A stretch of DNA of 64,000 nucleotides, taken from contig OZ024749.1 in assembly GCA_964016885.1 (NCBI GenBank), forward strand, positions 24,118,001 through 24,182,000, given 5' to 3'. This document shows, piece by piece, positions 3,001-60,136 of the stretch. The stretch comes from Eledone cirrhosa (Eukaryota). The translations under genes and the position numbers were made by a program. The notes under the pieces were generated by a model. It saw only the letters and a list, made by a program, of their open reading frames with translations, had not been told where the DNA came from and did no database searches. The stretch's first letter is position 1, and every line of letters begins with the position of its first letter.

Positions 3001-6000
3001 TGATCCGTGTTTTATTTGGGTGCCCCGTTTTTTATTTATGTGTCCGGTTTTTTTATTTGAATGCCGGTTTTTTTATTTGGGTGCCCCGTTTTTTATTTGG
3101 GTGCCCCGTTTTTTTATTGGGGTGCCCCGTTTTTTGTTTGGGTGTCCCGTTTTTTCATGGGTGTTGGTCCGTTTTTTATTTGGGTGTCCTGTTTTTTAAT
3201 TTGGGTGCCCCGTTTTCTATTTGGGCGCCCGTTTTTTATTTGGGTGCCTTCTTTTATTATTTGGGTGCCCCGTATTTGCGTGCCCCTTTTTTTAGGGTGG
3301 GTTCCGTTTTTTATTTTGGTGCCTGTTTTTTATTTGTGTGCCCCGTTTTTAATTTGCGTGCCCCTTTTTTATTTGGCTGCCCCATTTTTAATATTTGGGT
3401 GCCCCGGTTTTTTATTTGGGTCCGCCTTTTTTATTTGGGTGCGCCGTTTTTTTATTTGGGTGCCCAGTTTATTATGGGGGGTCCGTTTTTATTTGGGTAC
3501 CCGTTTTTTAGTTTGGGTGCCCCGGTTTTTATTTGGGTGCCCCGTTTTTTAATTTGGATGCCCCGTTTTCTATTTGGGTGCCCCGTTTTTTTATTTGGGT
3601 GCCGCCTTTAATTATTTGGGTGCCCCGTATTTTTATTTGGGTGCCCCGTTTTTTAGGGGGTGTCCGTTTTCTATTTGGGTGCCGTTTTTTTTTATTTGGG
3701 TGCCCCGTTTTTTTATTTCCGTGCCCCTTTTTTTATTTGATCACCACATTATTTATTTGGAGGCTCCGTTTTTTATTTGGGTGCCCCATTTTTGATTAGG
3801 GTGCGCCGTATTTTATTTGGGTGCCCGTTTTTTTATGAGGGCGTCCGTTTTTTATTTGGGTGCCCCGTTTTTTATTTGCATGCCCCGTATTTTATTTGGG
3901 TGTACGTTTATGGGGGTCAGTTTATATTTGGGTGCCACGGCCTTTATTTGGGTGCCCCGGTTTTTTATTTGGGTGCTCCGTTTTTTATTTGGGTGTCCCG
4001 TTTTTCTCGGGGAGGGGTCCGTTTTTTTATTTGTGTGCCTCGTTTTTTATTTGGTTGTACCGTTGTTTTATTTGGGTGCTTCGTTTCTTTTTTTGGTGCC
4101 CCGTTTTATTTATGTTGGTGACCGTTTTTTTAATGGGGGGATCCCCTTTTTTGGGTGCCCCGTTTTTTATTTGGGTGCCTCGTTCTTTTATCTGGGTGCC
4201 CCGTTTTTTTATTTGCGTGCCCCGTTTTTGATTAGAGTGCCCCGTATTTTATTTGGGTGCCCCGTTTTTTTGTTAGGTTGCCGCGTGGTTTTATTTTGTT
4301 GCCCCGTTATTTTATTTGAATGCGGTTTTTTTTTATTTGGGTGCCCCATTTATTTATTTGCGTGCCCCGTTTTTTTATCTGGGTGCCCATTTTTTTATTT
4401 GGGTGCCCCATTTTTGATTGGGGTGCCCCATTTTTTATTTGGGTGCCCCGTTCATTGTTTGGGTGCCCCGCTTTTTTAGGGGGGTTCGTTTTTTATTTGG
4501 GTGCCCTTTTTCTTTATTTGAGTCCTATGTTTTTTTATTTGAATGCCGGATTTTTTATTTGGGTGACCGGTTTTTTTATTTGGGTGCCCCGTTTTTTATT
4601 TGGGTACCGTGCTTTTTTATTTGGTGCCCGGTTTTTGATTAGAGTGTCCTATTTTTTATTTGGGTGCCCTTTTTTATGGGGGTGGGGTCCGTTTATGATT
4701 TGGGGGCCCGTTTTTTATGGGGTTGGGGTCCGTTTTTTATTTGGGTGCCCGTTTTTTTCATTTGAATCCCGGTTTTTTATTTGGTTGATCCGTGTTTTAT
4801 TTGGGTGCCCCGTTTTTTATTTATGTGTCCGGTTTTTTTATTTGAATGCCGGTTTTTTTATTTGGGTGCCCCGTTTTTTATTTGGGTGCCCCGTTTTTTT
4901 ATTGGGGTGCCCCGTTTTTTGTTTGGGTGTCCCGTTTTTTCATGGGAGTTGGTCCGTTTTTTATTTGGGTGTCCTGTTTTTTAATTTGGGTGCCCCGTTT
5001 TCTATTTGGGCGCCCGTTTTTTATTTGGGTGCCTTCTTTTATTATTTGGGTGCCCCGGTTTTTTATTTGGGTCCGCCTTTTTTATTTGGGTGCGCCGTTT
5101 TTTTATTTGGGTGCCCAGTTTATTATGGGGGGTCCGTTTTTATTTGGGTACCCGTTTTTTAGTTTGGGTGCCCCGGTTTTTATTTGGGTGCCCCGTTTTT
5201 TAATTTGGATGCCCCGTTTTCTATTTGGGTGCCCCGTTTTTTTATTTGGGTGCCGCCTTTAATTATTTGGGTGCCCCGTATTTTTATTTGGGTGCCCCGT
5301 TTTTTAGGGGGTGTCCGTTTTCTATTTGGGTGCCGTTTTTTTTTATTTGAGTGCCCCGTTTTTTTATTTGGATGCCCCGTTTTTTTATTTCGGTGCCGCG
5401 TTTTTTTATTTGGGTGCCCCGTTTTTTTATTTCCGTGCCCCTTTTTTTATTTGATCACCACATTATTTATTTGGAGGCTCCGTTTTTTATTTGGGTGCCC
5501 CATTTTTGATTAGGGTGCGCCGTATTTTATTTGGGTGCCCGTTTTTTTATGAGGGCGTCCGTTTTTTATTTGGGTGCCCCGTTTTTTATTTGCATGCCCC
5601 GTATTTTATTTGGGTGTACGTTTATGGGGGTCAGTTTATATTTGGGTGCCACGACCTTTATTTGGGTGCCCCGGTTTTTTATTTGGGTGCTCCGTTTTTT
5701 ATTTGGGTGTCCCGTTTTTCTCGGGGAGGGGTCCGTTTTTTTATTTGTGTGCCTCCTTTTTTTATTTGGTTGTACCGTTGTTTTATTTGGGTGCTTCGTT
5801 TCTTTTTTTGGTGCCCCGTTTTATTTATGTTGGTGACCGTTTTTTTAATGGGGGGATCCCCTTTTTTGGGTGCCCCGTTTTTTATTTGGGTGCCTCGTTC
5901 TTTTATCTGGGTGCCCCGTTTTTTTATTTGCGTGCCCCGTTTTTGATTAGAGTGCCCCGTATTTTATTTGGGTGCCCCGTTTTTTTGTTAGGTTGCCGCG

Positions 6001-8625
6001 TGGTTTTATTTTGTTGCCCCGTTATTTTATTTGAATGCGGTTTTTTTTTATTTGGGTGCCCCATTTATTTATTTGCGTGCCCCGTTTTTTTATCTGGGTG
6101 CCCATTTTTTTATTTGGGTGCCCCATTTTTGATTAGGGTGCCACATTTTTTATTTGGGTGCCCTTTTTCTTTATTTGAGTGCTATGTTTTTTATTTGAAT
6201 GCCGGATTTTTTATTTGGGTGACCCGTTTTTTTATTTGGGTGCCCCGTTTTTCATTTGGTTACCGCGTTTTTTTATTTGGTGCCCGGTTTTTGATTAGAG
6301 TGTCCCATTTTTTATTTGGGTGCCCTTTTTTATGGGGGTGGGGTCCGTTTTTGATTTGGGGGCCCGTTTTTTATGGGGGTGGGGTCCGTTTTTGATTTGG
6401 GTGCCCGTTTTTTTCATTTGAATCCCGGTTTTTTATTTGGTTGTTCCGTTTTTTATTTGAGTGCCCCTTTTTTTATTTGGGTGCCCGTTTCTTTATGGGC
6501 GTGTCCGTTTGCTATTTCGGTGCCCCGTTTTTTATTTATGTGGCCCGTTTTTTTATTTGAATGCCGGTTTTTTTATTTGGCTGCCCCGTTTTTTTATTTG
6601 GGTGCCCCGTTTTTTATTTGGGTGCCCCATTTTTTATTTGGGTGCCCCGTTTTTGATTAGGGTGCCCCATTTTTTATTTGGGTGCCCCGTTGTTTTATTT
6701 GGGTGCCCCGTTCTTTGTTTGGGTGTCCCGCTTTTTTAGGGGGGGGGGCGTTTTTTATTTGGGTGCCCGTTTTTTATTTGTGTGCCTCGTTTTTTATTTG
6801 GGTGCCCGTTTTCTATTTGGGGGCCCGGTTTTTTTATTTGGGAGCTCCGTTCTTTTTATTTGGGAGCCTCGTTTTTTATTTGGGTGCTGCGTTTTTTTAT
6901 TTGGGTGCCTCGTTTTTTTAGGGGGGGGGGGGTTCAATTTTAATTTGGGTGCTTTTTTTCTTTATTTGGGTGCTATATTTTTTATTTGAGAGTCGGATTT
7001 TTTATTTGGTGACGTGTTTTTTTATTTGGGTGCCCCGTTTTTTATTCGGGTACCCCGTTTTTTTATTTGGTGCCCGGTTTTTGATTAGAGTGTCCCGTTT
7101 TTTATTTGGGTGCCCGTTTTTTATGGGGGTGGGGTCCGTTTTTGATTTGGGTGCCCCGATTTTTATTTGGATGCCCCGTTTTTTTATTTGAATCCGGGTT
7201 TTTTATTTGGTTGATCCATTTTTTATTTGGGTGGCCCGTTTTTTATTTGCGTGCCCGATTTTTATTTGTGTGCCCCGGTTTTTATTTGAATGCCGGTTTT
7301 ATTTATTAGGGTGCCCCGTTTTTTATTTGGGTACCACATTTTTTTATTTGGGAGCCCCGTTTTTTTATTTGGGAGCCTCGTTTTTTATTTGGATGCCGCG
7401 TATTTTTATTTGTGTGCCCCGTTTTTTTATTCGAATCCACGTTTTTTATTTAGGTGTTCCGTTTTTTTTATTTGAATGACAGTTTTTTTATTTGGGTGTC
7501 CCGTTTATTATTTCGGTGCCCCGTTTTTTTATCAGGGTGCCGCGTTTTTTTATTTGGGTGCCCCTTTATTATATTTGAAAACGTCTTTTTTTTATTTGGG
7601 TGCCCCGTTTATTTATTTGGGTGCCCCGTTCTTTTATTTGGGTGCCCCGTTTTTTTATTTGGGAGCCTCGTTTTTTATTTGGATGCCGCGTATTTTTATT
7701 TGTGTGCCCCGTTTTTTTATTTGAATCCTTGTCTTTTATTTGGGTGACCCGTTTTTTTGTTTGGGTGCCCCGTTTTTTATTTGGGTGCTCCGTTTTTTTA
7801 TTTGAGGCCCCGTTTTTTATTTGAATCCCGGTTTTTTAATTGGGTGACCCATTTTTTATTTGTGTACCACGTTTTTTATTTAGGTGCCCCGTTTTTTATT
7901 TGGGTGCCCCGTTTTTTATGGGAGGGGTCCTTTTTTTATTTGGGTGCCCCGTTTTTTATTTGTGTGCCCCGTTTTTTATTTGAATGCCGGTATTTTTATT
8001 TGAGTGCCCCGTTTTTATATATGTTGCCCCGTTTTTTATTTGGGTGCCTCATTTTTTTATTTGGGTGCCCCGTTTTTAATTAGGGTGCCCCATTTTTTAT
8101 TTGGGTGCCCCGTTCTTTTATTTGGGTGCCTCGTTTTTTATTTGGATGCCGCGTATTTTTATTTGTGTGCCCCGTTTTTTTATTTGAATCCTTGTCTTTT
8201 ATTTGGGTGACCCGTTTTTTTGTTTGGGTGCCCCGTTTTTTATTTGGGTGCTCCGTTTTTTTATTTGAGGCCCCGTTTTTTATTTGAATCCCGGTTTTTT
8301 AATTGGGTGACCCATTTTTTATTTGTGTACCACGTTTTTTATTTAGGTGCCCCGTTTTTTATTTGGGTGCCCCGTTTTTTATGGGTGGGGTCCTTTTTTT
8401 TATTTGGGTGCCCCGTTTTTGATTAGGGTGCCCCATTTTTTATTTGGGTGCCCCGTTCTTTTATTTGGGTGCCCTGTTCTTTGTTTGGCTGCCCCGTTTT
8501 TTTAGGGGGGGTCCGTTTTTTTTGGGGGGGGGGGGGGGGTGCCCGTTTCTTATTTGGGTGCTATGTTTTTTTATTTGAATGACGGATTTTTTTTTGGGTA
8601 CTCCGTTTTTTCATTTGGGGCCCGG
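1..8625. repeat. Tandem satellite, ~20-22 bp monomer T(5-8)ATTTGGGTGCCCCG, with higher-order duplications
   Basis: Hundreds of diverged copies of tttttatttgggtgccccg. Blocks recur at offsets of 1785 bp (2535 vs 4320, 2996 vs 4781), 1714 bp (3777 vs 5491) and 463 bp (7757 vs 8220). The array runs off the left edge of the window. Confidence 0.97.
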
Positions 8626-13299: not shown

Positions 13300-13670
13300 A
13301 TTCCCTTTTTGGCATATTACCAGTGAGACCTTGGTTACCATGTTGAGCTCTGCTGATGAACAAAATCCAACCGTGACCATCCCCACTGAAAGTTTTCGTG
13401 AAATAGTCTTTTCGTGACTATACAGAGCATTTGAAGTTGTCCCAAATTGAAGGTTGGGTACTCTAGATTTTGTTTTATCATGAGTTAAGGCTCTATTGAT
13501 TTTTCCCTGGATTTCTCTAAATTCTGTATCCTGATTCCTTTTGAATTGAGACTGAATTATTTTTCCCATATCTTATGTTAACTATTTTCCCATTTTGACG
13601 CTATAGTCACATATATGTTATGGAATACTGTTAGCTTCTCGCTACAACAGTTTCTATACTTTTCATTTAT
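13300..13670 (+). mobile_element. ~370 bp non-coding HHR-bearing repeat (pLTR-like); second copy at 51093-51475
   Basis: The two copies align by eye from cctttttggcatatt to ttttcatttatata and both end in (TA)n. Confidence 0.75.
13347..13428 (+). ncRNA. Type I hammerhead ribozyme, atypical stem II
   Basis: gctctg-CTGATGA-(40 nt)-GAAA-tagtc-ttttcgt-gacta-TA-cagagc. Stem I is a perfect 6 bp and stem III is 6 bp. Confidence 0.75.
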
Positions 13671-18326: not shown

Positions 18327-18459
18327 TGTATGTATGTATGTATGTATGTATGTATGTATGTATGTATGTATGTGTGTATGTATGTATGTATGTATGTATA
18401 TATTACAAGATTACAAGGTTAGTATTATTATTACTTTTTTTTTTTTTTTTTTTCCAATT

Positions 18460-21400
18460 CAATGATGTTCCAGAACAATATAAAAGAGATAATTGGCAAT
18501 TTAGGTTCTGGAACAAAAAATATAATTGGCAATAAGGGCAGGGACCCCAGGTTATCACAGCCTGGGCCCGCTCGTCATCGTGCCATTGTAATAGAGCCAA
18601 ACAAGGCATTTAGTCTTGGCTGCTGGAACGTACGGACGCTGCTTGACAGGAATTCCTTGGAGCGTCCTGAACGAAGGACCGCTCTTGTTGCAAAGGAGCT
18701 TCGACGTTACGATCTTCACATCGTGGCTTTATCTGAGACGAGGTTAGCTGGAGATGGTCATCTTACAGAATTTTGTGGAGAATATACATTCTTCTGGAAA
18801 GGAAGAGACGAAGGAACCAGAAGAGAGGCTGGGGTAGGATTTGCTGTTAAGACTGTTCTTGTGAATAAATTAGAAGAATTCCCAGTAGGGATTAGTGAGC
18901 GTCTTATGTCCATGAGAATTCCGCTGGACAAAGGAAGATATGCAACCCTGGTGAGTGTGTATGCTACAACTATGAATTCTGTCGATGAAGAAAAAGTATC
19001 CTTTTACCATGCCTTGAAAGGTGTTTTAAGAAATATCCCTCAGGCAGACAAAGTCATCGTGCTTGGTGACTTTAACGCTAGAGTGCGTAGGGATTTTAAC
19101 ACATGGAATGTAATCAGAAGGCATGTGGTGGGAAAGTATAACAACAATGGTATGCTCCTGCTGCAGATGGGTGAGGAGCTGGATCTGTATGGTACCAACA
19201 CCATGTTCCAACAAAAGAACAAATTCAAGATCACATGAATGCATCCTGCATCTAAGGAATGGCATCTTTTGGACTACGTTCTAGTCAGGTTGCGTGACAG
19301 ACAGGATGTGCAGTGTGTTCGTGCTCTTCGTGGAGCTAAGTGCTGGACGGTCCACCGCCTGGTACGCGCAAAAGTGAAACTAATCACTAAACGTAAAATC
19401 TGGGCTCCTGATGTTGCCCTGCCCAAAAGATTGAATGCTGTTCGTCTTAAGGATAAAAATGTGAAGAGGACATTGGAAGAAGAGATGCAGGCTGCAGATC
19501 TTGGTGAGGATTGGCCGACCCTTAAAAAGTCGGTTTATGATGTAGGCAGGCGTGTTCTGTGATTGATGCAGAGAAAACGTCAGGACTGGTTTAATGAGAA
19601 TGATGTACATATAGAAGACTTGTTGGCTGATAATAGGCGTGCTCTGTCACGCTACTTGACGGCAAAACCACTGGAGAGGAATACGTTGCACGAGGAACTC
19701 AAGGATGTAAAATCACGTGTTAGGCGGAGTCTTTCTCAGATGAAGGATCAGTGGTGGATTGAGAAGGCTGGTGAGATACAAACTGCGTCAGATTCCAATA
19801 ACACAAAGCTGTGGACAGTCTCTTGCGTGAGGTTTATGGACTGTCTTCTTCTCTGGTGGCACCGTTTCGCAGTAAGGATGGCAAAGAACTTCTTCGTGAC
19901 TCACAAGGAATTCTACGAAGGTGGAGAGAGCACTTTGATGATCTTTTGAATAAGCCGTCTGTCGTCAGTGAAGTTTTCCTCAATCTCATTCCAGAAAGTG
20001 CCGTGAAAGTAGCTCTCGCAGAACCTCCGACGCTTGTGGAGGTTGCAGTGGCTATCTCGAAGCTGAACAGTGGAAGGTCTCCAGGTATGGATGGCATACA
20101 TGCTGAGCTCCTACAATATAGTGGTGAGACACTCCTGCAATATCTTCACTCTTTGTTTGGCAGGATATGGGCTAATGAATCCGTACCTGAGGACTGGAGA
20201 GATGCAGTAATGGGGGTCTTGTACAAGGGAAAGGGTAACAGGAATGATTGTGGGAACTACAGAGGTATATCATTGCTTTCTGTCGTAGGGAAAATTTTAT
20301 GTAGGGTGCTTCTGGACCGTCTGCTGACACACATTGCAGATTGTGTTTTCCTGAAAGTCAATCTGGTTTTCGTGCTGGACGCGGCACTAGTGATATGATC
20401 TTCTCAGCTAGACAGCTCCAGGAGAAGTGCATGGAACAAGGTTTGGATCTGTATCAGGTTTTTGTCGATCTGACAAAAGCTTTCGATACTGTTAACAGAG
20501 ATGCATAATGGAAGGTTCTCCAGAAACTTGGTTGCCCTGATAAGTTCCTTGCTTTAGTTAGGCCTTTCCATGACGACATGAAGGCTTGGGTTAATGTCGG
20601 AGGTAACATGTCGGAGCCTATCTCAGTAAAAAATGGAGTGAAACAGGGGGATATTCCAGCACCGACCCTGTTTGCCATATATTTTGCAATGGTTTTCTGT
20701 ATTGCATTCAGGAATTGCGAGCATGGTGTTTACATCCGATATCGAACCTCAGGCAGCATATTTAACATCAGGCGCTTTGCTGCGAAGACAAAAGTATTTA
20801 TATCAATCATAAGAGACCACTTGTATGCAGATGATTGCGATCTTGTAGCGCACACAGAGAGTGATATGCAGCACATTTTGAATGCATTTTCTGACGCTTG
20901 CACTGCCCTAGGATTGACTGTCAGTCTCAAGAAAACCGTCGTCATGTACCAACCTGCCGCTGGTAAGCAGTACACTGAACCAAATATCTATGTGTATAGT
21001 AAACGACTTGGAGTGGTTGATCAGTTTGTCTACCTGGGAAGCACTGTCAATCGATACAGCAACCTTGACAGTGAAATCTCACTTAGAATTAGGAAAGCAA
21101 ATGATGCCTTCGGAAAGCTAGAAAGGCGACTCTGGGGTCGGCGAGACATATGCAGGAGGACAAAGGTAAAGGTGTACAAGGCATGTGTGCTCTCTTGTCT
21201 TCTTTATGCCTGCGAGACCTGGGTCACATATCGACACCACCTTAAGCAATTGGAGCGTTTCCATCAGATGTGTCTCAGACGGATCCATGGCGTTCACTGG
21301 AGGGACCACATCAGTGATGTCGAGATTTTGGAAAGTTCTATGTGTGACAGTATAGAAGCTCTTGTGCTTAAGCAACGACTTCGTTGGAGTGGTCACCTTG

Positions 21401-22167
21401 CCAGGATGAAGGATTCTAGAATACCAAAACAACTCTTTTATGGAGAGTTGGTTAAAGGAAAACGACCGCCACATAAACCAAAAAAGAGGTATAAGGATTC
21501 CTTGAAAGCCTCTTTGAAAAACGCTAACATCTCTGCTGATACATGGGAAAATATTGCTGCTGATCGTAATAAATGGAGAAAAACTGTATATGAGGGAAAA
21601 GTTGCCTTTGAGGCATCTCGAATCGCATACGAGAAAGTAAAGCGGGATGTAAGGAAGGGCATTGCTGTTGCACCTCCAGACGGCGAGGGACCACCTATGG
21701 TGCTGACATGCAGCGTCTGTGTGAGACTCTGCCTAAGCAAAGCTGGACTCGAAAGTCATCTTCGCAGTCATAAAGTAAGACCAGTGGTTGACTATCAGGC
21801 TGCTGTTGGAGATGCTTTTCATCATGCTTGCCAAACATGTGGTAGAGAATGTAAATCAGCAGGAGGGCTCAAGCGACATGCAAAAGTACATGAACTCCAA
21901 CCACAGCCGGCTATTCCCAGTGAATGTTTTGGTTGCCGACTCTGTGCAAGACATTTTAGATCATTGGCTGGGTTAAAAAGCCACATTCGATCACCGTGCT
22001 GTTAGTTGCGATCGTGTGTGTGTGTGTGTATATATATGTTTATGTGTGCGCGTGTGTGTATATATATATGTATATGTATATTATTATTGTTGTTATTATT
22101 ATTATTTTTATTGTTATTAATGTATATGTGTGTATGTATATATATATATGTGTGTATATATGTATAT

Positions 22168-25402: not shown

Positions 25403-25460
<58 letters not shown>

Positions 25461-25541
25461 GTTATTCCGGGTTGAATCGGAGGTAACCACAGTAAGTAAG
25501 GTACTCAATACATAGCAGAGTATAAAAGTTTTAATATAGAT

Positions 25542-25594
25542 GAGATTCTACAGGACTAGAACTGTTTCATTCATTAGAAATCATCAGGAATCTC
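25542..25594 (-). ncRNA. Type I hammerhead ribozyme (left arm of fold-back)
   Basis: gagattc-CTGATGA-tttctaatgaat-GAAA-cag-ttctagtc-ctg-TA-gaatctc, with a 7 bp stem I and a GUA triplet. Confidence 0.85.
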
Positions 25595-25643
25595 GATTGC
25601 TGATGATTTCTAATGAATGAAACAGTTCTAGTCCTGTAGAATC
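25595..25643 (+). ncRNA. Type I hammerhead ribozyme (right arm of fold-back; stem I mismatch)
   Basis: gattg-CTGATGA-tttctaatgaat-GAAA-cagttctagtcctg-TA-gaatc. Confidence 0.7.
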
Positions 25644-25646
25644 TCA

Positions 25647-25690
<44 letters not shown>

Positions 25691-31347: not shown

Positions 31348-32928
31348 TTAAACCATATTTAATGTTGGTCTATATTTTTGAATAAACATATTTTCCTTAT
31401 TTATTCGCATTTGTTCTGTTGTATTGTTAGCGCAAAGGTAAAATGGGAAGACTTGGAATTTGGGTGTCTTATTACTTGCGCAAATGTCTAGATATGCACT
31501 TAGTGGTATCTGTCTCGTGGTTGGATCTCGTAATTGTTGGCGATGAACTGTCATTCTGTTTCTGAGTGTGAGTTTAGTTTGTCCTATATAATCTTCATTG
31601 CATCCTTTACATTTAATGGCATAAAGTAGATTTTTTGATGAGCAAGTGAAATGATTTTTTACAGTAAAATTTTGTCCTGATTTAAATGTATACGTGTTGC
31701 CTTCAATGAGGTGAGTGAAGGTTCCACAATTAGAGCGACCACATTTTTTGATACTTGGTTGTGGGTTTGTGGTAGGTAATTTGGCATTGGTGAGTAATGT
31801 TTTCAGTGATTTTGGTTTTCTTTTGCTTTTGATTATTTTGTGTGTTTCAAAGGCTTTTTTCATTCTTGGGTTTTGTTTTAGTAGTGGGATGTTATTGTGA
31901 ATAGTGTTGTAAGCTTCCGCATTTCTTGGGTTGTGTATTGAGATATATGATAGAATATTGGACGTACCTTGAATTTGTTTCTGTTTCCGTAATTCATCAA
32001 TGCCTATTGCTTTAGCCCTTTCTATTCCATTATTTATTAGTGATAGTGGGTACTCTCTCTCGAGTAGAATTTCCTTTAATTCTTGAAGTCTTTTATTTCG
32101 CGTTTCATAATTGGAGACAATTGTGCAAATTCTTCTTGCTAGGTTAAAAGGAATGTTCGTCTTCGTGTGCTTTGGATGGTTGGAGGTGAATAGCAGATAT
32201 TGTTTGGAATCTGTTGGTTTGTAGTGTATGTCAGTTTCGATATTTGTGTCTTTTTTTAAGATTAAGATGTCCAGAAATGGGAGTTGATCTTGGCTGTATT
32301 CCATTGTGAATTGGATGTGGTTATTGATGCCGTTTATTAAGTTTTTGAAATCCTTCAGTTGGTCGAGTGTGTGGGACCAAAGAATTAGGCAATCATCCAA
32401 GTAGCGTTTCCAATTCTCTGATAAATATTTGTGGAAATTCAATCCGTATTTTGATTTGGACTGTTCATATATCTGGACTTCTAAGTATGCCATGACTAAG
32501 TTGGCATAAGTTGGAGCGGCTTTTGTACCCATCGCAGTCCCCGATATTTGCTTGTAAGTATTGCCATCGAAATCAAAAAAGTTGTTCTGTAGGATGAATT
32601 TTAATCCCTCGGTGATGAAGCTTTTTTCTATTCTGTCAGGTATCTCATTGGGATATTTCTCTAGCCAGAATCCTATTGCTTCTAGTCCGTATTGGTGTGG
32701 GATCGTTGTGTAGAGATTCACTACATCGAAAGACACAATAATAGTGTCGTTGTTGACATGTTTGGGGAGGTGGTTTAAGAGGTCCAAATCGTCTCTTACA
32801 AGGCTTGGTATGTGTTTCAGTATTGGTTTCAGTAGTATGTCTATAAAGTTGCTCAATCTGTGTGTTTCACATTGTGGGCCCGCTACAATTGGTCTTAATT
32901 TAAGGTCTGTGGGGTATTGTGTGTTCAC
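31348..32928 (-). pseudogene. PLE reverse transcriptase-GIY-YIG open segment (526 aa); upstream part frameshifted
   Basis: RT motifs with YLDD and the GIY-YIG motif lie in one open frame. The N-terminal part of the ORF is in other frames (33047-34170). Confidence 0.9.
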
Positions 32929-34259
32929 GCAGGCTGAGGTGGATTGTTTACAGGCATCGTTGATTATTTTACACTTGTGGATCTTCGGAAGTCCGTAAAG
33001 GTTGCTGGTTTTGTATTCAAAATTTGTTAAATAATCGCGTTCCTTTTTAGTTAGGTCTTCCTGGTATCGATAAATCAGTGTTTAATTTGGTCATTATTTT
33101 TGATTGCTGGTAGCTTTTTACTCTTTCATAGTAATTAGTATTTTGTAAGAGAGAGAACATAGAATTTTTATATTTTTCAGCCTCCATAATGACAACAGTA
33201 CTTCCCTTGTCCGCTTCCTTAATTATAATGTCCGTATTGTTTTTTAGTTCATGGATAATCTCCCATTCCCTTCGACTCGTGTTGGGTTTGGGTTTAGGTT
33301 GCGGTAGTTCATGGTATGGGAAGGTAGCTATGTGGTCAGAAAATTTGTCCAGAACTCTGTTTCTACCTTTTGTTGGGTTGTAGCTGCTTTTATTCCGTAC
33401 AATTGATTCGTCGTTATTCATCTTGTCAAAGAATTCCTCTGTGAGACGTAATTTTCTACAGAAGTGTGAGATATCGTCATTTATCTCGTTGGGGTTAGGG
33501 TATTGTGGTGTTGGTGGGAATTTCAGACCTTTGGAGAGAATTTTTACTTGTTGGGCTGAGAGGTTTGTATTTGAAATGTTAATTATTTTCGGTTTTTCAA
33601 AATCGGTTTGTGCCACCGGGTGTCGTGAGTCCTGTAGCCTTGGTCAAAAAAATGATTTTTCTGGAATGTTTTTTCAATGGTATTATTATATCTAATGGTA
33701 TTTCCCCTGTTGTTGTGTGGTCTTGTATAGAAGTTTCGGACGTATTGAGGTTCGGTTTGTTGATAGTCCTGGTTGTAGATTTTGTTCCTTTGTGTGGGTT
33801 GGGATCTACGGTTTTGGAACAGGCTCTGTGTGGGCAGGGGTCTACGGATTTGGAATAGGTTTTGTGTGGGTTGTGATCTGCGGATCAGGTCCTGCCTTGT
33901 GTTCGGAGATCTTTGGTTTTTGTTAGTAGGGTTATAGTTTTGTCTATGGTTTCTGGGATTATCGTTATAGTTTTGCTGGCGGTATGTTGGACGTTTTGTT
34001 ACTTTTTTTGTTATTTGTTGTGCATGTGGTGTGTGAGTTTTAGTTTGTTTTAAAAATGGGTTACCTGTATGTTGTTCATTTTTGAAGTCCATTTCGTAGT
34101 TGTTGAACCAGGAGGCGTTTTTTTCCCATCGCTGGAGGGATGTTAGTTCTTCATCCTCACAGTTTTCTTTATATATATATGAGGGGCGAAGGGTCCGTGC
34201 ATGCAACGCAAGCAGTGCATGCGTTATAGAATCTTGAGTTGATCAATCGCGTCGGTTGA

Positions 34260-41127: not shown

Positions 41128-41202
<75 letters not shown>

Positions 41203-41205
<3 letters not shown>

Positions 41206-41341
41206 CGAAGGAAATGTGGTAAGGAACCAGGTGGACCATAACGCACCAAAGTACTCAATACGTAGGGTAGTAGAGTGGGTAATAGGAACGAGTAGGACCC
41301 CGACGGCTGAGCTCAGCCGTCGGGGTCCTACTCGTTCCTAT
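41203..41341 (-). mobile_element. pLTR fragment ending in a perfect 60 bp palindrome
   Basis: Reverse copy of the 10318-10450 family. Positions 41282-41341 are perfectly self-complementary, centred on gagctc. Confidence 0.8.
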
Positions 41342-41346
41342 ATATG

Positions 41347-41384
<38 letters not shown>

Positions 41385-41420
41385 TACATATATATATATA
41401 AACATATATATATATATATA

Positions 41421-41460
<40 letters not shown>

Positions 41461-41482
41461 CATATATATATATAAACATATA

Positions 41483-41520
<38 letters not shown>

Positions 41521-41528
41521 AACATATA

Positions 41529-41591
<63 letters not shown>

Positions 41592-41637
41592 ATATATACA
41601 TATATAGAAATATATATATATATATAAACATATATAG

Positions 41638-41673
<36 letters not shown>

Positions 41674-41903
41674 ATATATACATATATAGAAATATATATA
41701 TATATATATAAACATATATACATATATAGAAATATATATTAGAAATTGGAATAAATGCTCTGAAATAGCGATATATATGTGAATATAGACATAGAATATT
41801 CGAAAATATTCTGTATGTTTATAATAAACATTTTGAAGACCTAATCGCTATAGAATAGAATACGTCACGTATTACAATTAGATTCTCGATAAAAGCAAGG
41901 GAA

Positions 41904-41946
41904 GTAATCTACGCGTTTCATTCTCGTTAGAAATCATCAGGACTAC
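41904..41946 (-). ncRNA. Type I hammerhead ribozyme, array copy 1
   Basis: gtagtc-CTGATGA-tttct-aacg-agaat-GAAA-cgcg-TA-gattac, with palindromic stem III acgcgt. Confidence 0.85.
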
Positions 41947-42213
41947 ATATCCAGTGCTTTTATCGAGAATGACACAGCTAGAGACTTATAGAATACTTAG
42001 CTGTGTACAGGAACTGGTTTGAAAGAGCGGTTGCCGGTCCGGCAGAAATTAGAAATTGGAATAAATGCTCTGAAATAGCGATATATATGTGAATATAGAC
42101 ATAGAATATTCGAAAATATTCTGTATGTTTATAATAAACATTTTGAAGACCTAATCGCTATAGAATAGAATACGTCACGTATTACAATTAGATTCTCGAT
42201 AAAAGCAAGGGAA

Positions 42214-42256
42214 GTAATCTACGCGTTTCATTCTCGTTAGAAATCATCAGGACTAC
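42214..42256 (-). ncRNA. Type I hammerhead ribozyme, array copy 2
   Basis: Same sequence as copy 1, offset +310. Confidence 0.85.
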
Positions 42257-42523
42257 ATATCCAGTGCTTTTATCGAGAATGACACAGCTAGAGACTTATA
42301 GAATACTTAGCTGTGTACAGGAACTGGTTTGAAAGAGCGGTTGCCGGTCCGGCAGAAATTAGAAATTGGAATAAATGCTCTGAAATAGCGATATATATGT
42401 GAATATAGACATAGAATATTCGAAAATATTCTGTATGTTTATAATAAACATTTTGAAGACCTAATCGCTATAGAATAGAATACGTCACGTATTACAATTA
42501 GATTCTCGATAAAAGCAAGGGAA

Positions 42524-42566
42524 GTAATCTACGCGTTTCATTCTCGTTAGAAATCATCAGGACTAC
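42524..42566 (-). ncRNA. Type I hammerhead ribozyme, array copy 3
   Basis: Same sequence as copy 1, offset +620. Confidence 0.85.
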
Positions 42567-42833
42567 ATATCCAGTGCTTTTATCGAGAATGACACAGCTA
42601 GAGACTTATAGAATACTTAGCTGTGTACAGGAACTGGTTTGAAAGAGCGGTTGCCGGTCCGGCAGAAATTAGAAATTGGAATAAATGCTCTGAAATAGCG
42701 ATATATATGTGAATATAGACATAGAATATTCGAAAATATTCTGTATGTTTATAATAAACATTTTGAAGACCTAATCGCTATAGAATAGAATACGTCACGT
42801 ATTACAATTAGATTCTCGATAAAAGCAAGGGAA

Positions 42834-42876
42834 GTAATCTACGCGTTTCATTCTCGTTAGAAATCATCAGGACTAC
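42834..42876 (-). ncRNA. Type I hammerhead ribozyme, array copy 4
   Basis: Same sequence as copy 1, offset +930. Confidence 0.85.
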
Positions 42877-43177
42877 ATATCCAGTGCTTTTATCGAGAAT
42901 GACACAGCTAGAGACTTATAGAATACTTAGCTGTGTACAGGAACTGGTTTGAAAGAGCGGTTGCCGGTCCGGCAGAAATTAGAAATTGGAATAAATGCTC
43001 TGAAATAGCGATATATATGTGAATATAGACATAGAATATTCGAAAATATTCTGTATGTTTATAATAAACATTTTGAAGACCTAATCGCTATAGAATAGAA
43101 TACGTCACAGTTCCTGTACACAGCTAAGTATTCTATAAGTCTCTAGCTGTGTCATTCTCGATAAAAGCACTGGATAT

Positions 43178-43220
43178 GTAGTCCTGATGATTTCTAACGA
43201 GAATGAAACGCGTAGATTAC
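43178..43220 (+). ncRNA. Type I hammerhead ribozyme in the inverted copy
   Basis: gtagtcCTGATGAtttctaacgagaatGAAAcgcgTAgattac reads directly on the + strand. Confidence 0.85.
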
Positions 43221-43409
43221 TTCCCTTGCTTTTATCGAGAATCTAATTGTAATACGTGACGTATTCTATTCTATAGCGATTAGGTCTTCAAAATGTTTAT
43301 TATAAACATACAGAATATTTTCGAATATTCTATGTCTATATTCAAATATATATATATATATATATATACAATATTAAATAAATGGAAACTATATTTATAA
43401 AACCATATT

Positions 43410-43475
43410 TATTTCATTATATATATTTCGGGGATATCATATTAACAATATGCTATGCCTTCCTCAGACAAAATA
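43410..43475 (-). ncRNA. Type I hammerhead ribozyme (family shared with 53.5, 53.8 and 61 kb)
   Basis: tattttgt-CTGAGGA-aggcatagcatattgttaatatgatatcccc-GAAA-tatata-TA-atgaaata. It lies inside an inverted repeat (43369-43403 vs 43557-43591). Confidence 0.7.
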
Positions 43476-43680
43476 CAATATAAACAGTTTTATAGATAAA
43501 TAGATTCGACATACCGTAACAACACCGACTTGCATTTGAAGAGGTTGAATTGAATGGTTTTATAAATATAGTTTCCATTTATTTAATATTGTAAATATAC
43601 TCCAAATATTTGTCGAGTGCTTTTATATCAGTTATAAATATTTACTAGTTGTAACCCAACAATTTTAAATATAACTTTCC

Positions 43681-43729
<49 letters not shown>

Positions 43730-44219
43730 CATATATGTGTGTGTTTGTGTGGGGGGGGGGGGGTTTAGATCTCTTTTTGGAAGGTTTTTTTTTTCATATA
43801 CTGAGGCCTGCGTCGCCATTTTGTCGAAACCAATTTAATTTTAATTGATATCCCAAGTACACTGTATCTAATTCAAGTACCGTTCAATATATTCAATCAT
43901 AAAAGTATTTAAAGAGTGTGTTTATTTCTTTATCTTACTTTAGTAAATAGTTTGTAAATTGAGTTCGCTTTGCCGCAATTATGTTGTATTTATTGATACA
44001 CACAGTCGCTGACACATACGCACACACATACAAACATTTATCTATACGCACACAGGCACAGACACATACAGAAGCACACACATACACACACCAACGGACA
44101 TATATACATATATATATATATGCACACACACATATATGCATATATATATACACATATATACATATTTATACACACACTTATATATATGTTTATGTGTGTA
44201 TGTGTGAGAGGATGGGTGA

Positions 44220-49989: not shown

Positions 49990-50825
49990 ATGTCTGTAAA
50001 CTACGTAAGCCAGGCTTACGTAGTTTACAGACTAGAGTGTGACAAATGCAACAACTTCTACGCAGGTAGCACCACCAGACCACTCCACATAAGAATAAAA
50101 GAACACCTCAATACTAACGCTTCCTCATTTAAGAAACACCTAGTTAAATGCAAAAACACTGATAAAAACATAACAGTTAGGATAGAAACTAAAGAAAGAA
50201 ACCTCGGTAATCTTAGAATCAAGGAAGCACTCATTATAGATAGAACACATCCACCAATCAATAATAGACTAGAGCTCAACACCCAATTTATAACCTGATA
50301 GGGCCTCTAGCCCCACTTTACACACCCCACACACACGCACGCACACACCTCCACTTATTCTCTCTCACACATACACACACAAAACCAGTTCTAACACCAG
50401 ATAACACCTACCCCCCACTTTTACGATTAGACCTATCTTCCCACACTCACACACACACATACCTACACCTTCATGCTTTCTCCCACACACATATACAGGC
50501 ACGCATATAAAATTTAAAAAACACAACAAAAACATAAACAAACCCCTCTTAAAGGGAGACTACTCTTTACCCAACTAATTTTAATTCTTTGATATTAAAG
50601 TTAGAACTCTATACTATTTCCGGTCAGCATGGCTTCATTGGAAATTTAAGACGCTGGTCTGAGACTTTTACTTCCCTCCGAAGAAGAGATATTATCTCGA
50701 AAATTAAGGACATTTAAATAAATTCAAGGTGAAAGACGAACGCTCATCAATATCTCTCACTATTGCATTCTTTTTCTATGTCCATATCTGCATTGTCTTG
50801 GCCTTATTACACATTTTCTAACGTT
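49990..50825 (+). mobile_element. PLE 3' remnant: GIY-YIG domain (49990..50298) plus 3' terminal repeat with a variant HHR at ~50674-50710
   Basis: Protein VVYRLECDKCNNFYAGSTTRPLHIRIKEHL..LRIKEALII..P.IN. HHR-like cct-CCGAAGA-a-gagat-att-atctc-GAAA-at-TA-agg. Ends in (TA)n. Confidence 0.8.
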
Positions 50826-50862
50826 TATATATATATATATATATATATGTTTACATATCTCT

Positions 50863-53479: not shown

Positions 53480-53867
53480 TACGATATTAAACAAATGGAA
53501 ACTATATTTATAAAACCATATGTATTTCATTATATATGTTTCTGGGATATCATATTAAAAATATGGTATGCCTTCCTCAGACAAAATACAATATATAAGC
53601 CGTTTTATAAATAAATTTGACATACCTTAAAATAATACAACTCCCATTTAAAAAGTTGATTTGGTAGTGTAGTAGTAATACTACCAAATCAACTTTTTAA
53701 ATGGAAGTTGCATTATTTTAAGTATGTCAAATTTATTTATAAAACGGCTTATATATTGTATTTTGTCTGAGGAAGGCATACCATATTTTTAATATGATAT
53801 CCCAGAAATATATATAATGAAATAAATATGGTTTTATAAATATAGTTTCCATTTGTTTAATATCGTA
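53480..53867. repeat. Fold-back inverted repeat (~190 bp arms) with hammerheads at 53523-53588 (-) and 53759-53824 (+)
   Basis: Near-perfect arms centred at ~53673. The + arm reads tattttgt-CTGAGGA-...-GAAA-tatata-TA-atgaaata. Confidence 0.88.
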
Positions 53868-55464: not shown

Positions 55465-58400
55465 TGGTCTAATCAGACGTATTTTGCTCGCTCCCAGTAA
55501 ATCGCTGTATTTGCCTGTTAAAATTATTTGTTGTTAAATATTTCTTGTTGTGTAAGGGATATAAGCCCTTAGACATTGCCCTGTGAAGGGGAATGTATAA
55601 TATTTGGGCCTTTTGGCCCAAATATCTGAACATTTTACGTTTAAAATATTATTTTAAAAAAAAAACATGGCTGAGCCACGCCACCTAGCAATATGTCTGC
55701 TGTGGTGTGACAACAGTGTAAAAGGTGAGAGGAGGATTAGTGAAATTCATACAACAGACACCACCACAAACCACGCGAACAACACTGGGAACACTAATTT
55801 TGAAAACATTACCACACCAACTTCAACAATAACAGCGACAACAAAAATACAGACAACAGAAAAAATGACAACAAATGCAACAACGATATTAACACCACTA
55901 ACAAGAAAATAAACGACAACAGCAACAATACAAAATGCACCGAAAACAGCAAAAACTGTGGCACCAAAAACACAACCAATTACAACAGTGATAAAAGCAA
56001 CAACACCAACAACACCGTTTGTAGCAACAGCAACAGCACCAACAACAAGACCAGTAGCAGCAGTAGCGGCATCAAAAATGGTGCCACTGAAAAAGGGGCC
56101 ACTTCTTTCGCAGGTGTGGCCCGAAATATAGAGACAGGGCTAGTCACGCAGGAGATGGCAGTCGCAAACACAACAAAACACACACACCCAACAGCAACAA
56201 CAAGAAAACAGCAACAAAATCGCCCCTCCCCCCAAAAAGTACACAGCCATAAACATGGCAAATAAAAAACTCTTACAACATATAAAGCAGCACACAGACA
56301 TCCCAGAATAAACTACTACACCCATCAACACCAAGAACTCTCCCGACAAACATAAGCATCATTGAAGTCTCAATAGAACATTACAAACTTTTAAAACAAA
56401 TTCCCCAACGCAGTTCGAGACTTCAGAGGGTCGGTTACCAAGAGGATAGACAACGACATCCTCTTGGAAACACCCATGACCAGCCAAAGGGACGGTTCTA
56501 CTGTCCCGTCACCACACGATCAAGGTAAGTGATCCCTTCTCACTTACCCCGTTTCTCATCCAAAATGGCTGTACTTAGAATAGGCAGTATAAATGTACGT
56601 GGCCTGGGGTCATCTTGGAAACAGGGACACCTGCTCGACGACCTCAGGTCACTAAACATAGATGTGGTGGCCATCAGCGAGACCAGAATCTCCGAAGCAC
56701 GAGCCTTCGCACCAATCTTCGGCGGCTACGATATATACGCATTTCTCAGCCGTCCAGGATCGGGGGAGGAGTCGCCGTGCTTTTTCGGAGAGGCTTGGAT
56801 CTCGCCATACGGGCCATCTTCCTGGACCCAGAAGGTAGGTCGATCGTGCTGAACGTGACCGGCAGAGAAGGCAATGCTTTCAGCTTAGGAGCCGTTTTCT
56901 TCAGACGTCTAGAGACCTTTCTTGGAACGTCACGCTCATAAGTGTTAGTGGGCGACTGGAACGGTATCTTAGATGCACGCTGGGATTATGTGGGGCTAGT
57001 AGACAGGGCTGGAGGGTGTAAAAGCCTCAACAGCCTGCTCAGAGGCTTTGAACTGTCTGACAGGTATAGACAGGATTATCCGAATGTGCCAATGTGGACA
57101 TGGGCAAACCGCATCGGGTCATCCAGATCGTATTTATATAGGGTATTCTGTAGGGAAACAGATAAGGCTAGTATAGGTTGTCCACAATTTAAAGTAGTCG
57201 ACTACACGAACGACACATTTGCGATCTGTGAAGTTCACTTAGATAGACTCCATAGGCAAGGTCCCGGCTAGTGGAAGCTGAACGCATCGGTCCAGGCGCG
57301 CAAAGCTTACAGAGACCGGATTAGCGAATTAGTTAAGCGTGCGTTGACGGGTACGACCGTCAACAACAGATGGTGGTTTACCCTGAAATGGGATATTAGA
57401 GTAGAATCGATAAGTTTAGCAAAGGAGTAGTGATAGAGGAAAATAGAGAAGAGGGAGAGTCAGTTAGAAAGCTAGAAGAGGCGTTTAGAACAGGCATCGC
57501 AACCGACGTGCTTGCGGCAAGATTGGCACTCGACCAATTCTTCAACGCAAAGCATTAAGGCTGCGTTGTCAGAGCTAGAGCGCGTGCTCTAAGACACGAG
57601 GGGACGAATGCCGTTCAATGGACCCGGTTGATGGAGGCGCGACATGGCAACAAGTCCACAATTCGGTCTTTGCCTGATCAAAACGGCTGCATGTTGCTCG
57701 AACCCGAGCAGATGTGTGCGGCTTTTCAACAGCACTTTGCTCAATTGTTCGGGAGCGGCGGTGGGCCGGATCAGAGTATGGATTTCGGTGCATACCTCGA
57801 CGGTCTGCCGCGGCTATCGACGACCGCAGCGCCAGCGCTGCGAAAAGCCGATAGCAGCAGGTGAAATACGGGAAGCGATGACTGACTGCACGAGGGTTAA
57901 ATCGCCAGGTTTGGATGGTCTGCCATATGAGCTTTATGCGTATATGCCAGACTTGTTCGTATGTCTACTGAAACTGGTAGCAGAACGGGAGCATTCCCAG
58001 TTTTATGAGCCGAGGAGCAATGGCGCTGCTGCCAAAAGACCCAAACAAGGGGGAAGTTATAGACAACTTCAGACCCATAACTCTGCTAAGCGCAGAGTTT
58101 AAGATTTTGGCCTAGGTGTTAGCAAAGAGATTGGCGCTTGTCGTCGGTGAAATGGTGGGAGAGGCGGAGACAACCTCCATCTCAGGCGATGCATCATAGA
58201 GAGGGTGGTTAAGGAACCTGAAACGCTGGGGATTTGATCAAGTTGGATCAATCTAAAGCATATGATAGGGTCGACCATCGCTAGCTGGCTGCCGTCCTCA
58301 AGGCGGCCGGCTTCGGGCCCATTTTTAGGGGCTGGCTCGCTGCGATGCACAGCAACATCGGCTCGATTGTGAGGAGGGTGAATGGTCACCTGTCGCAGCC

Positions 58401-60136
58401 TTTCAGTATCATTCGGTCGGTCCGCCGGGGTTGCCCCTCTCGTCCCTCTTGTACGTACTGGCCCTAGAGCCGTTACTGCACAAATTGGAGACGATGAGGT
58501 GGGTCCCACGCGAACTGGGATGCGGGAGATCAGTGTCAGCTTACGCCGACGACGTCACCGTGGTAGTGTCGAGCACCAAACACCTCCAGATGCTCGGCAC
58601 AACTCTCAAGGAATACGAAGCGGTGACAGAAGCAAAGATAAACCAGGGAAAGTCAGTGGGCTTGCAACTCGGCATCTGGAGAGGCAAGTCCATGCCGTCC
58701 GACAGCGTCGTGGGGCGCTGGACGGAAGGACCGGTTAAATTGCTCTGGGTCCGGTGCGGTCCGGACCTCCAGATGGAGAAAAACTGGAGCGACGTGACGA
58801 GCAGGGTGGCCTCACTAACGCAGAAATGGGCCGCGAGGAGGCTGTCTCTGAAAGGTCGGGCGGAGGTGGCGAATGCATACATAGCGTCCGTCATCTGCTA
58901 CAACCTGACCGTCGTACCTTGCTCTCGCCCAACTCTGACCAAAATGGAGCCCCTTCTCTTCCGCTCTTTGTGGAAGAGACGTGCTCCCATGGTCAGCCGA
59001 TCCATTTGCTGTCAACACCTGTTGCGTGGAGGACTAGGCATGCCGTGGCTGATGATGCGCAAAGATGCGCTGAGGCTGCGACATCTCTGGTGCTTCCTTG
59101 ACGGTGAACAGGTGTGGTCGCCGTTTGCCAGACGCGATTTTCCCCTGCTCATCTCCTTGACCGAGCTGCAGTCATGGATCAGGAAAAGCCCGAGAGATAG
59201 CGCTTGGAAGCTGGAATGTTTTCAAGGGCTTATCGCCCTCTACCAGCTGGACACCAGTATCGGTGGAACATCCACCTCGGCGATCTATAGAGGGCTAGTG
59301 GAGGGTAAGAGCGACGATGTTCTCCGGGAGACTCTGGGCATCGAAGGCAATCATCTGTTCGCTCTCTTCAAGATAACTTTCAGACCGGGGCCTATGGACA
59401 ACTTCCAGAAATCCCAGGCCTGGCAGTGCTACCGGAGAGCGTTGCCGGTTGGGATAAGCTCTACAGGCACGGAGGTGCTGTCAGCCGAGCCTGTCCGAGA
59501 TGCGCGCAAGGTGTCCTGCATGCATCCGTGCAGTGCCCGAGGATTGCTGATTTGTGGAGCTATGTCGAACAGCTGCTGTCGCGTGTAGGACAGATCCGGT
59601 TATCGACTGAGTCCATTGTGCAGATAGCCCCGCCATCCTCCTTTAAAGAGGAGGAAGGGCAGGCAGTTTTCATCTGAGATTGTGTGGTGGTCAAGGTTAA
59701 AAGGGTTGAAGACGGACACTTTCCTCTCCGGCCAATCCCTAATTAACTTTTTCAAGTTTCACTTGAAGAGGAAAATCAGGGTGGAGAGGCAAGTGCCGTC
59801 TTCTAGTAAGTTTGTTGAAAGGTGGGTGAAAGTGGCGAGTTTGGTCCGAGTGAACGGGCCCGCACTGAGTATTGTAGACTGATGAGTGGGAAAACTGAGA
59901 GAGGGCGCTTGCCCTGATGGTCAGGTTGACCGTGGCCTTTTTGTGGGGTTTTCGACACGAGTGACCCTCGGAGGTTTCCCCCTATTTTGGGAATTTTTGT
60001 TGTTTGAATTTATTTGATTCCTAGCCCAAGTTTGTTATAACTTGTTTACACGAACAAAACCCACTTTGTATCGTCCTGAACTGTTCTGTGGCGTCTCTAA
60101 TGTTTTTCTTCGTGTTAGCCCTTGTAGCCAATAAAG
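55465..60136 (+). mobile_element. L1/Tx1-clade LINE, degenerate: low-complexity ORF1 remnant and ORF2 (APE-RT-zinc knuckle) 56565-59882
   Basis: Motifs MAVLRIGSINVRGL..VAISET, LVGDWN, WKLN, KSPGLDGL, FRPITLL, PLSSLLYVLALEPLL, AYADD, LSLKGR, GGLG and CPRC..H...C. AATAAA at ~60130. Many stops and frameshifts. The 5' boundary is approximate. Confidence 0.92.

Follow-up and report, generated by a model that had tools for sequence, protein, structure and literature searches.

The window, by which we mean the whole analysed stretch of 64,000 nucleotides from contig OZ024749.1 of Eledone cirrhosa, contains an insertion built from a 310-bp unit (GC 34.5%) and consisting of two head-to-head arms of unequal length, both of which adjoin (TA)n directly, without an LTR structure (Table 1). 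Comparison of the longer arm B with itself at an offset of +310 was free of mismatches across 41738–42798, in agreement with the preliminary description of this DNA, which had reported about 4.4 identical units without an ORF; the longest stop-free frame in a concatemer of the unit comprised 59 codons. The extent of the tandem run had to be revised: what had been described as one run over 41739..43344 turns, at 43108, into an exact inverted partial copy of 237 bp (arm A), which carries a fifth hammerhead on the plus strand, overlooked when four were taken as the full set. In a monomer numbering with M1 as the first base 3' of the predicted hammerhead cut, arm B starts (5') at M42 (43108) and runs 3' as far as site B, no further than M172 (41738), while arm A ends at M130 or, through TA ambiguity, as far as M139 (43353); the arms share one base at the centre. 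No tRNA gene or tRNA-like promoter was found in the window at 41200–44000.

Table 1. Features of the two-armed insertion and of a related insertion in the window. For minus-strand hammerheads the first number of each predicted cut is the last base 5' of it.
Feature	Position	Strand	Basis
(TA)n-rich microsatellite, left target part	41339..41737	.	TRF period 2 at 41339–41739; sequence
Arm B, 4.42 identical units, ribozyme sense on minus strand	41738..43108	-	TRF (period 310, 4.4 copies, 100% matches), inverted match, end mapping
Type I hammerhead 1, predicted cut 41910/41909	41904..41946	-	Descriptor match; no Rfam match
Type I hammerhead 2, predicted cut 42220/42219	42214..42256	-	Descriptor match
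Type I hammerhead 3, predicted cut 42530/42529	42524..42566	-	Descriptor match
Type I hammerhead 4, predicted cut 42840/42839	42834..42876	-	Descriptor match
Cut-to-cut monomer, 310 nt, predicted circle	41910..42219	-	MFE z -3.9; circular fold
Two further cut-to-cut monomers	42220–42529, 42530–42839	-	Predicted cut positions
Predicted RT-initiation element, M149–197, once per unit	42023..42071	-	Fold common to monomer and 3,127-nt PLE unit
AU-alternating tract M132–139 at site A	42081..42088	-	A-arm ends map to M128–139
Arm A, inverted 0.76 unit, M204 to site A	43108..43344	+	Exact 237-bp inverted match
Type I hammerhead 5, inverted arm, predicted cut 43214/43215	43178..43220	+	Descriptor match
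(TA)n, right target part	43345..43369	.	Sequence
Separate insertion, 5'-truncated copy of candidate partner PLE family	50010..50829	+	98.4% identical; own site A in (TA)n

Several other repeats lie in the window. Four short PLE-type insertions with inverted halves are found in (TA)n at 25460–25648, 41205–41340, 43370–43680 and 53531–53816; three of the four have hammerhead-like cores, in three of them tails of ~80–100 nt were read by eye, and the hammerhead at 25.5 kb shares its core and the start of stem II with the 310-nt unit. Single hammerhead-like cores were located at 13353, 14108, 51148, 51992 and 61393. Broken LINE-type RT elements are present at 18423–22005 (plus strand, ending in C2H2 zinc fingers) and 57632–59588, and an 8.5-kb satellite of 20/41-bp units with a strong T skew spans 4–8502.

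Hammerhead and predicted fold of the monomer

The descriptor stem I/CUGAUGA/stem II/GAAA/CGCG/UA/stem I matched the minus strand in four consecutive units, placing a type I hammerhead in each complete unit with predicted cuts at 41910 and every 310 nt thereafter, as had been proposed earlier; the three releasable monomers foreseen then correspond to three whole predicted cut-to-cut units. Rfam hammerhead models, recommended in the preliminary description as a check, gave no match to the window hammerheads, even at E up to 10. The window hammerhead begins stem II with a U.U mismatch, a trait of the axolotl HHR_Amex2, and has a stem III reduced to one pair with a palindromic loop, as in HHR_Amex1 with its one-pair stem III and palindromic tetraloop (both described in PMC7229834).

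The monomer was predicted to be highly paired, with an MFE of -72.5 kcal/mol (z -3.9; 1/100 shuffles equally stable). Its MFE structure contained the helices listed previously, except that the loop of the GCCGG/CCGGC hairpin has to be 3 nt long rather than 1 nt. When two hammerhead cores were folded together, a double hammerhead was the predicted cofold MFE structure (-17.7 vs -5.8 kcal/mol for one strand), which fits the dimer-type hammerhead suggested before. Among the variants that are fixed across whole arrays of this family, T287A restores the first pair of stem II and T284A falls on the free N7 position of the hammerhead; none affects an invariant core base, which alone is weak evidence, the variants being so few.

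Copy number and authenticity

Pattern searches of the 3.0-Gb assembly gave 4,033 matches to the exact 43-nt hammerhead and 16,459 to a better conserved 29-nt motif, with zero matches for the controls. Two types of TA-junction pattern had 826 and 952 matches on the forward strand, which was used because the reverse-strand counts were inflated by overlapping matches. By arithmetic, this corresponds to ~1,650–1,900 insertions of ~9 units each, near 0.17% of the genome; put in round numbers, some 16,500 units are spread over ~1,700 insertions. Two other sequencing runs each yielded a closed 340-nt (310+30) unitig without differences from the unit, at depths of 365 and 6.7. The earlier concern that the array might be an assembly artefact can thus be rejected on the genome matches, the zero controls and the closed unitigs.

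At least 65% of the words of the unit were also present in 20 sequencing runs carrying 18 organism labels and belonging to 17 studies. Four runs were examined; besides the two with the closed unitig, one yielded the unit as a 313-nt piece with 3 differences at a depth of 3.3. Low-depth presence under other labels fits trace DNA from a 16,000-copy repeat equally as well as real presence; horizontal transfer may also be a source.

Two-armed architecture of the insertions

The ends of the arrays were mapped at 65 loci, namely the window array and 64 others, all of which lie in the initial 110 Mb of contig C1. Of these, 51 were plainly two-armed with both ends visible, three were complex or cut off at the edge of the fetched sequence and two-armed too, and 11 were single-armed, one of them being cut by an assembly gap. 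The outer ends fell either at M128–139 (site A) or at M163–172 (site B), some 35 nt apart, and every two-armed insertion combined one A with one B end (51/51; 27 AB, 24 BA, no AA or BB), giving a one-sided tail. The rule held in all 29 loci of a blind subset (~2e-9 if the arms chose independently), whose members were picked without sight of the second end, 19 of them via one TA-joined end. The outer ends adjoined TA-rich repeats in the flank listings of the mapped loci, as do both arms of the window array, confirming the (TA)n target named in the preliminary description. Target duplications of 26–60 bp were informative at 5/51 loci, compared to 0.3% of mismatched flank pairs, the remaining loci being unreadable in pure TA.

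Both arms exceeded one unit in 41/51 insertions, with medians of 1,050 and 1,444 nt, a maximum of 8.5 kb and up to 27 units in the longest arms. The central 5' ends were scattered around the unit and were depleted at the ribozyme cut, only 1/102 lying within 10 nt of it (6.6 expected, p 0.009), and the first 51 loci showed no unit-specific indel where units meet at the cut, the 39 two-armed arrays alone offering ~360 such crossings. At the centre the arms overlapped in 31/51 insertions (by 1–5 nt in 29), met bluntly in 7 and were separated by inserts in 13. Three side observations concern these centres: 9/102 of the 5' ends cluster at M200–212, bordering the predicted initiation element on its 3' side (p 0.03, post hoc); L048 and L073 have an identical centre junction (M167/M256) and differing haplotypes; and in L056:1899–2170 the arms are separated by 272 nt of unrelated sequence, a likely template jump. 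A PLE ORF was joined to the array at none of the 65 loci, the nearest being at least 369 bp away, which for these loci speaks against the alternative raised earlier that the unit occurs elsewhere only as the pLTR of an autonomous PLE.

Haplotypes, local duplication and base changes

Haplotypes were compared in those arrays, 56 in all, in which every position was present at least twice. They comprised 24 haplotypes, 17 of which were seen once, and the variants were fixed across all units of an array, while intermediate-frequency sites numbered 16 and were confined to 8/56 arrays. The two arms shared a haplotype in 41/42 arrays (7.1 expected; maximum 17 in 20,000 permutations), and many arrays of 8–18 units had no single-unit variant at all. 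Whole-array variants together with matching arms require a bottleneck of one unit followed by its re-amplification into both arms, and a monomer circle gives this directly. At L068, a switch between A276 and G276 occurs inside one arm, hence not every insertion had one unchanged template. In the long arms of L055 (with a 7-unit period), L052, L056 and probably L165 single-unit variants recur, which indicates later local duplication.

Array-wide changes were biased to A>G, found at 6 sites vs one T>C, with A276G and A20G each on at least three backgrounds. The trend was opposite among 56 single-unit changes (A>G 2, T>C 9), the difference giving a Fisher p of 0.002 on a hand count of 10 vs 1 events, and all five paired A>G changes keep the pair as G.U. 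A-to-I editing may be the source of the array-wide A>G changes; structural selection or recombination would explain them equally.

Sister family

An older sister family with units of ~315–322 nt (1,713 pattern matches) was located at L081–L110 of contig C1, L033:5485–5720 and L045:850–1290. It shares with the 310-nt unit a module at M59–235 at about 80%, while its hammerhead differs: in most cases the core is U3/A8 and stem III a palindrome of 12 nt. Head-to-head ends of both A and B type were visible in four insertions. In 25 copies, 14/27 pairs change on both sides, including all four pairs of stem II, a level reached by 0/500 shuffles in a test that is inflated by kinship among the copies; pairing amounted to 95% as against 38–46% in slid controls. 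The 3/8 core pair was C/G in 5, U/A in 19 and C/A in one of the 25 copies, and stem III was palindromic or nearly so throughout. These paired changes show covarying constraint on the ribozyme of the sister family.

At the chimeric locus L105:20–1812 (contig C1, ~56.08 Mb), a PLE arm is joined head-to-head with four 163-nt units that belong to the sister module and lack the hammerhead; each of the two outer ends is of B type. It was this chimera that led to the candidate partner family described below.

Candidate partner PLE

The young PLE family (L142–L156) has a 3,127-bp unit with an intact frame of ~900 codons encoding RVT_1 and GIY-YIG domains, a minimal hammerhead-like motif whose 4-nt stem III is palindromic, and at least 150 genome matches; some of its head-to-head copies possess two whole ORFs. 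Of fifteen regions fetched by ORF position or length, 13 are complete to both ends; each of these copies pairs an A end with a B end and has a tail of 40–44 nt (about 35 nt in the retrozyme) and (TA)n flanks. Most copies are about 98–100% identical to the reference copy and one is about 96% identical. Five arms exceed one 3,127-nt unit, and the arm lengths of 0.76–4.3 kb, from a sample biased to long arms, overlap those of the 310-nt arrays.

Apart from TA runs, blastn gave no similarity between the 310-nt unit and this PLE among the matches listed. What they share is a predicted initiation fold of a short helix, a 21–22-nt loop and a GC hairpin. In the monomer, a 5-bp helix closes a pyrimidine-rich loop of 22 nt that holds site B and is followed by the GC hairpin. 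The fold occurs once among the 310 windows of the monomer and once among the 3,127 windows of the PLE, and site B is base 12 of the loop in both; the descriptor was written after the examples had been seen, while the register match at site B was not built into it. The predicted cut and site B are 163 nt apart in the PLE, as against 165 nt in the retrozyme. On the shared footprint, age and fold, we slightly favour this family, or a close relative, as the partner of the retrozyme. The other PLE of the window, at 31348–34242 on the minus strand, belongs to a separate family with RVT_1 and GIY-YIG domains and was rejected as partner: it carries a frameshift, matches the young family at 25% identity in a portion of the RT, and no shared ends were seen.

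Discussion

By every sequence feature examined, including unit size, GC content, consecutive hammerheads, the non-coding nature of the unit and dispersed copies with target duplications, the element is a non-LTR retrozyme, as originally proposed. Metazoan retrozymes of this kind, known from coral, mussel (thus already from a mollusc) and axolotl, are described as non-coding tandem units of 150–450 bp with a GC content below 50% (PMC7229834), and the present family resembles them in unit size, in the single type I hammerhead per unit and in the highly paired monomer. Expression and cleavage have been shown for metazoan retrozymes (PMC7229834; bioRxiv 10.64898/2026.07.22.740005), whereas the ribozyme described here is predicted from sequence; in Xenopus, eight of nine retrozyme dimers did not cleave (bioRxiv 10.64898/2026.07.22.740005).

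Mobilisation of metazoan retrozymes by PLEs via circles was proposed in PMC7229834. In Xenopus the tie to PLEs is similarity to the pLTR, found in 24/57 retrozyme families and not universal, and local amplification is favoured (Li et al., bioRxiv 10.64898/2026.07.22.740005), whereas here the link consists of footprint and fold. The words 'inverted' and 'head-to-head' are absent from the main text of PMC7229834, and the available text of the Xenopus preprint contains no description of two-armed arrays or fixed start sites. Literature searches and word look-ups of PMC7229834 and PMC7761336 likewise turned up no account of retrozyme arrays with two arms, of strict A/B pairing or of haplotypes shared by a whole array, although the supplements of PMC7229834 and of the preprint may bear on this.

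The insertions of the 310-nt family have much in common with those of PLEs. Endonuclease-bearing PLEs leave head-to-head copies with a one-sided tail of 30–40 bp in microsatellite targets (PMC8557442; PMC3846280), and the protein of the anole element PAc cuts and extends both strands of AT-rich DNA in vitro, with two internal start sites downstream of the hammerhead that define the tail (PMC11167929). The retrozyme likewise has head-to-head, 5'-truncated arms, a tail at one end, a (TA)n target and two internal RT start sites downstream of the hammerhead, and on our reading both target strands would again be cut and extended. Its unit differs from an autonomous PLE in having no ORF and in forming arms of up to 27 units. 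The strict pairing of one A with one B end and the single haplotype per insertion are unstated for PLEs in the available text of PMC8557442, PMC3846280 and PMC11167929. For the anole element, uncut RNA served in vitro and was the favoured template, the hammerhead was dispensable and the start sites did not differ between strands (PMC11167929). Self-priming on an antisense template, by which head-to-head junctions are explained in PMC3846280, would not lead one to expect the fixed pair of outer ends and the variable centres seen in the retrozyme. Dimer-only cleavage, resistant monomer circles and more-than-unit reverse transcription were proposed by Cervera and de la Pena in 2014 (PMC4209133); that circle model is a hypothesis for head-to-tail tandems, and the present family supplies a genomic footprint by which it can be tested.

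The A/B rule, the tail, the head-to-head arms and the matching footprint of the candidate partner make PLE-type two-site mobilisation a well-supported conclusion; insertion by PLE machinery as such had been suspected in the preliminary description. The single rolling-circle cDNA suggested there has to be replaced by two head-to-head arms that start from two fixed internal sites, neither of which is the ribozyme cut.

In LINE-1 twin priming, both target strands prime on one linear RNA, one from its poly(A) end and the other from a variable second site, and the inverted 5' part is joined by microhomology. In the retrozyme, by comparison, the two sites are invariant and lie inside the unit, and each arm runs to more than one length of the template.

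We therefore read the window insertion as a young non-coding 310-nt non-LTR retrozyme whose two head-to-head arms in (TA)n arose by PLE two-site, two-strand priming on one circular RNA, with a probability of roughly 0.6 for the reading as a whole. Read-through multimers would fold into double hammerheads via the palindromic stem III and so release 310-nt monomers; cutting by a single monomer is predicted to be poor, hence a ligated circle would persist. The RNA would offer a predicted helix–loop–hairpin that mimics the PLE's own initiation element. By analogy with the anole protein (PMC11167929), the PLE RT/GIY-YIG protein would then cut both target strands and both (TA)n 3' ends would prime, always one at M128–139, where the AU-alternating tract should be able to pair with the (TA)n primer, and one at M163–172. 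Each RT would circle the template for a median of 1.0–1.4 kb, passing the cut without stopping. The two cDNAs would finally be joined; head-to-head joining at variable points, mostly with 1–5 nt of microhomology, is directly visible at the centres. Local duplication, evident in a few long arms, would later add units. Against this reading stand the 11/65 single-armed loci, the L068 switch, the hammerhead-less arm of L105 that ends at site B, the missing Rfam match, the use of uncut RNA by the anole PLE in vitro and the non-cleaving Xenopus dimers; as regards the partner, the blastn result, its longer tail, the two B ends of L105 and the post hoc fold descriptor also count against it.

The main rival retains two-site PLE priming and takes as template an uncut linear multimer of the parent array, the hammerhead being weak or incidental to mobility. 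It also accounts for read-through at the cut and for matching arms; use of unprocessed RNA by the anole PLE in vitro (PMC11167929), the U.U mismatch and one-pair stem III of the window hammerhead and the four-unit 163-nt arm of L105 are all in its favour. We nevertheless consider it unlikely, since the all-or-none variants need a one-unit bottleneck with re-amplification, many arrays of 8–18 units are free of single-unit variants, truncated copying of linear parents would shorten the arrays in each generation, and the sister-family ribozyme shows covarying constraint.

Another arrangement would use two RNA molecules from the same source locus, hence the matching arms, one for each RT subunit of a PLE dimer, such as is predicted for the anole protein (PMC11167929). 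The two template states within L068 and the union of a PLE arm with a retrozyme-module arm in L105 agree with it; alone, it leaves the strict one-A-one-B rule unexplained. Moreover, 5/51 A arms, more than expected, and 0/51 B arms stop just past site B (M160–170; p 0.03, post hoc), as though the RT had run into the second primer on a shared RNA, and we regard two separate RNAs as distinctly improbable.

Later amplification in place, by unequal crossing-over, of a short PLE-type insertion whose arms spanned about one unit, as in the satellite model of Li et al. (2026), gains from the recurring single-unit variants in L055, L052, L056 and probably L165 and from one arm of more than 25 units. It has very little probability in our view: both arms are multi-unit in 41/51 insertions and identical across the inversion, even arrays that show no divergence are long, the arms of the autonomous PLE (a sample biased to long arms) fall in an overlapping range of lengths in bases, and arms shorter than one unit could not seed the amplification. 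Successive copying of ribozyme-cut linear monomers by template jumping, to which the centre inserts of up to 272 nt (L056) might point, is largely refuted by the depletion of 5' ends at the cut and the lack of unit-specific junction indels in the loci surveyed.

A more general proposal, which we advance tentatively and at somewhat less than even odds, is that a 310-nt circle mimics the fold of a PLE initiation element, not its sequence, and that a PLE dimer copies it simultaneously from the two fixed sites as a double rolling circle. The head-to-head and tail signature of PLEs, for long without an explanation, would then be the mark of obligatory A/B priming of both target strands on one, often circular, RNA, and changes in that RNA, possibly A-to-I, would be written into every unit.

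The movement of retrozymes has so far been a model without a footprint, and this family offers one; the tandem and inverted structures of PLEs, for their part, have been ascribed to 'still undefined features' of their cycle (PMC8557442). With ~1,700 young insertions, haplotype marks, two start sites and an intact, co-active candidate enzyme, both questions become testable with a short RNA and one protein. The reading proposed here would also imply an RT system by which a small RNA circle is turned into multi-copy arrays within TA repeats.
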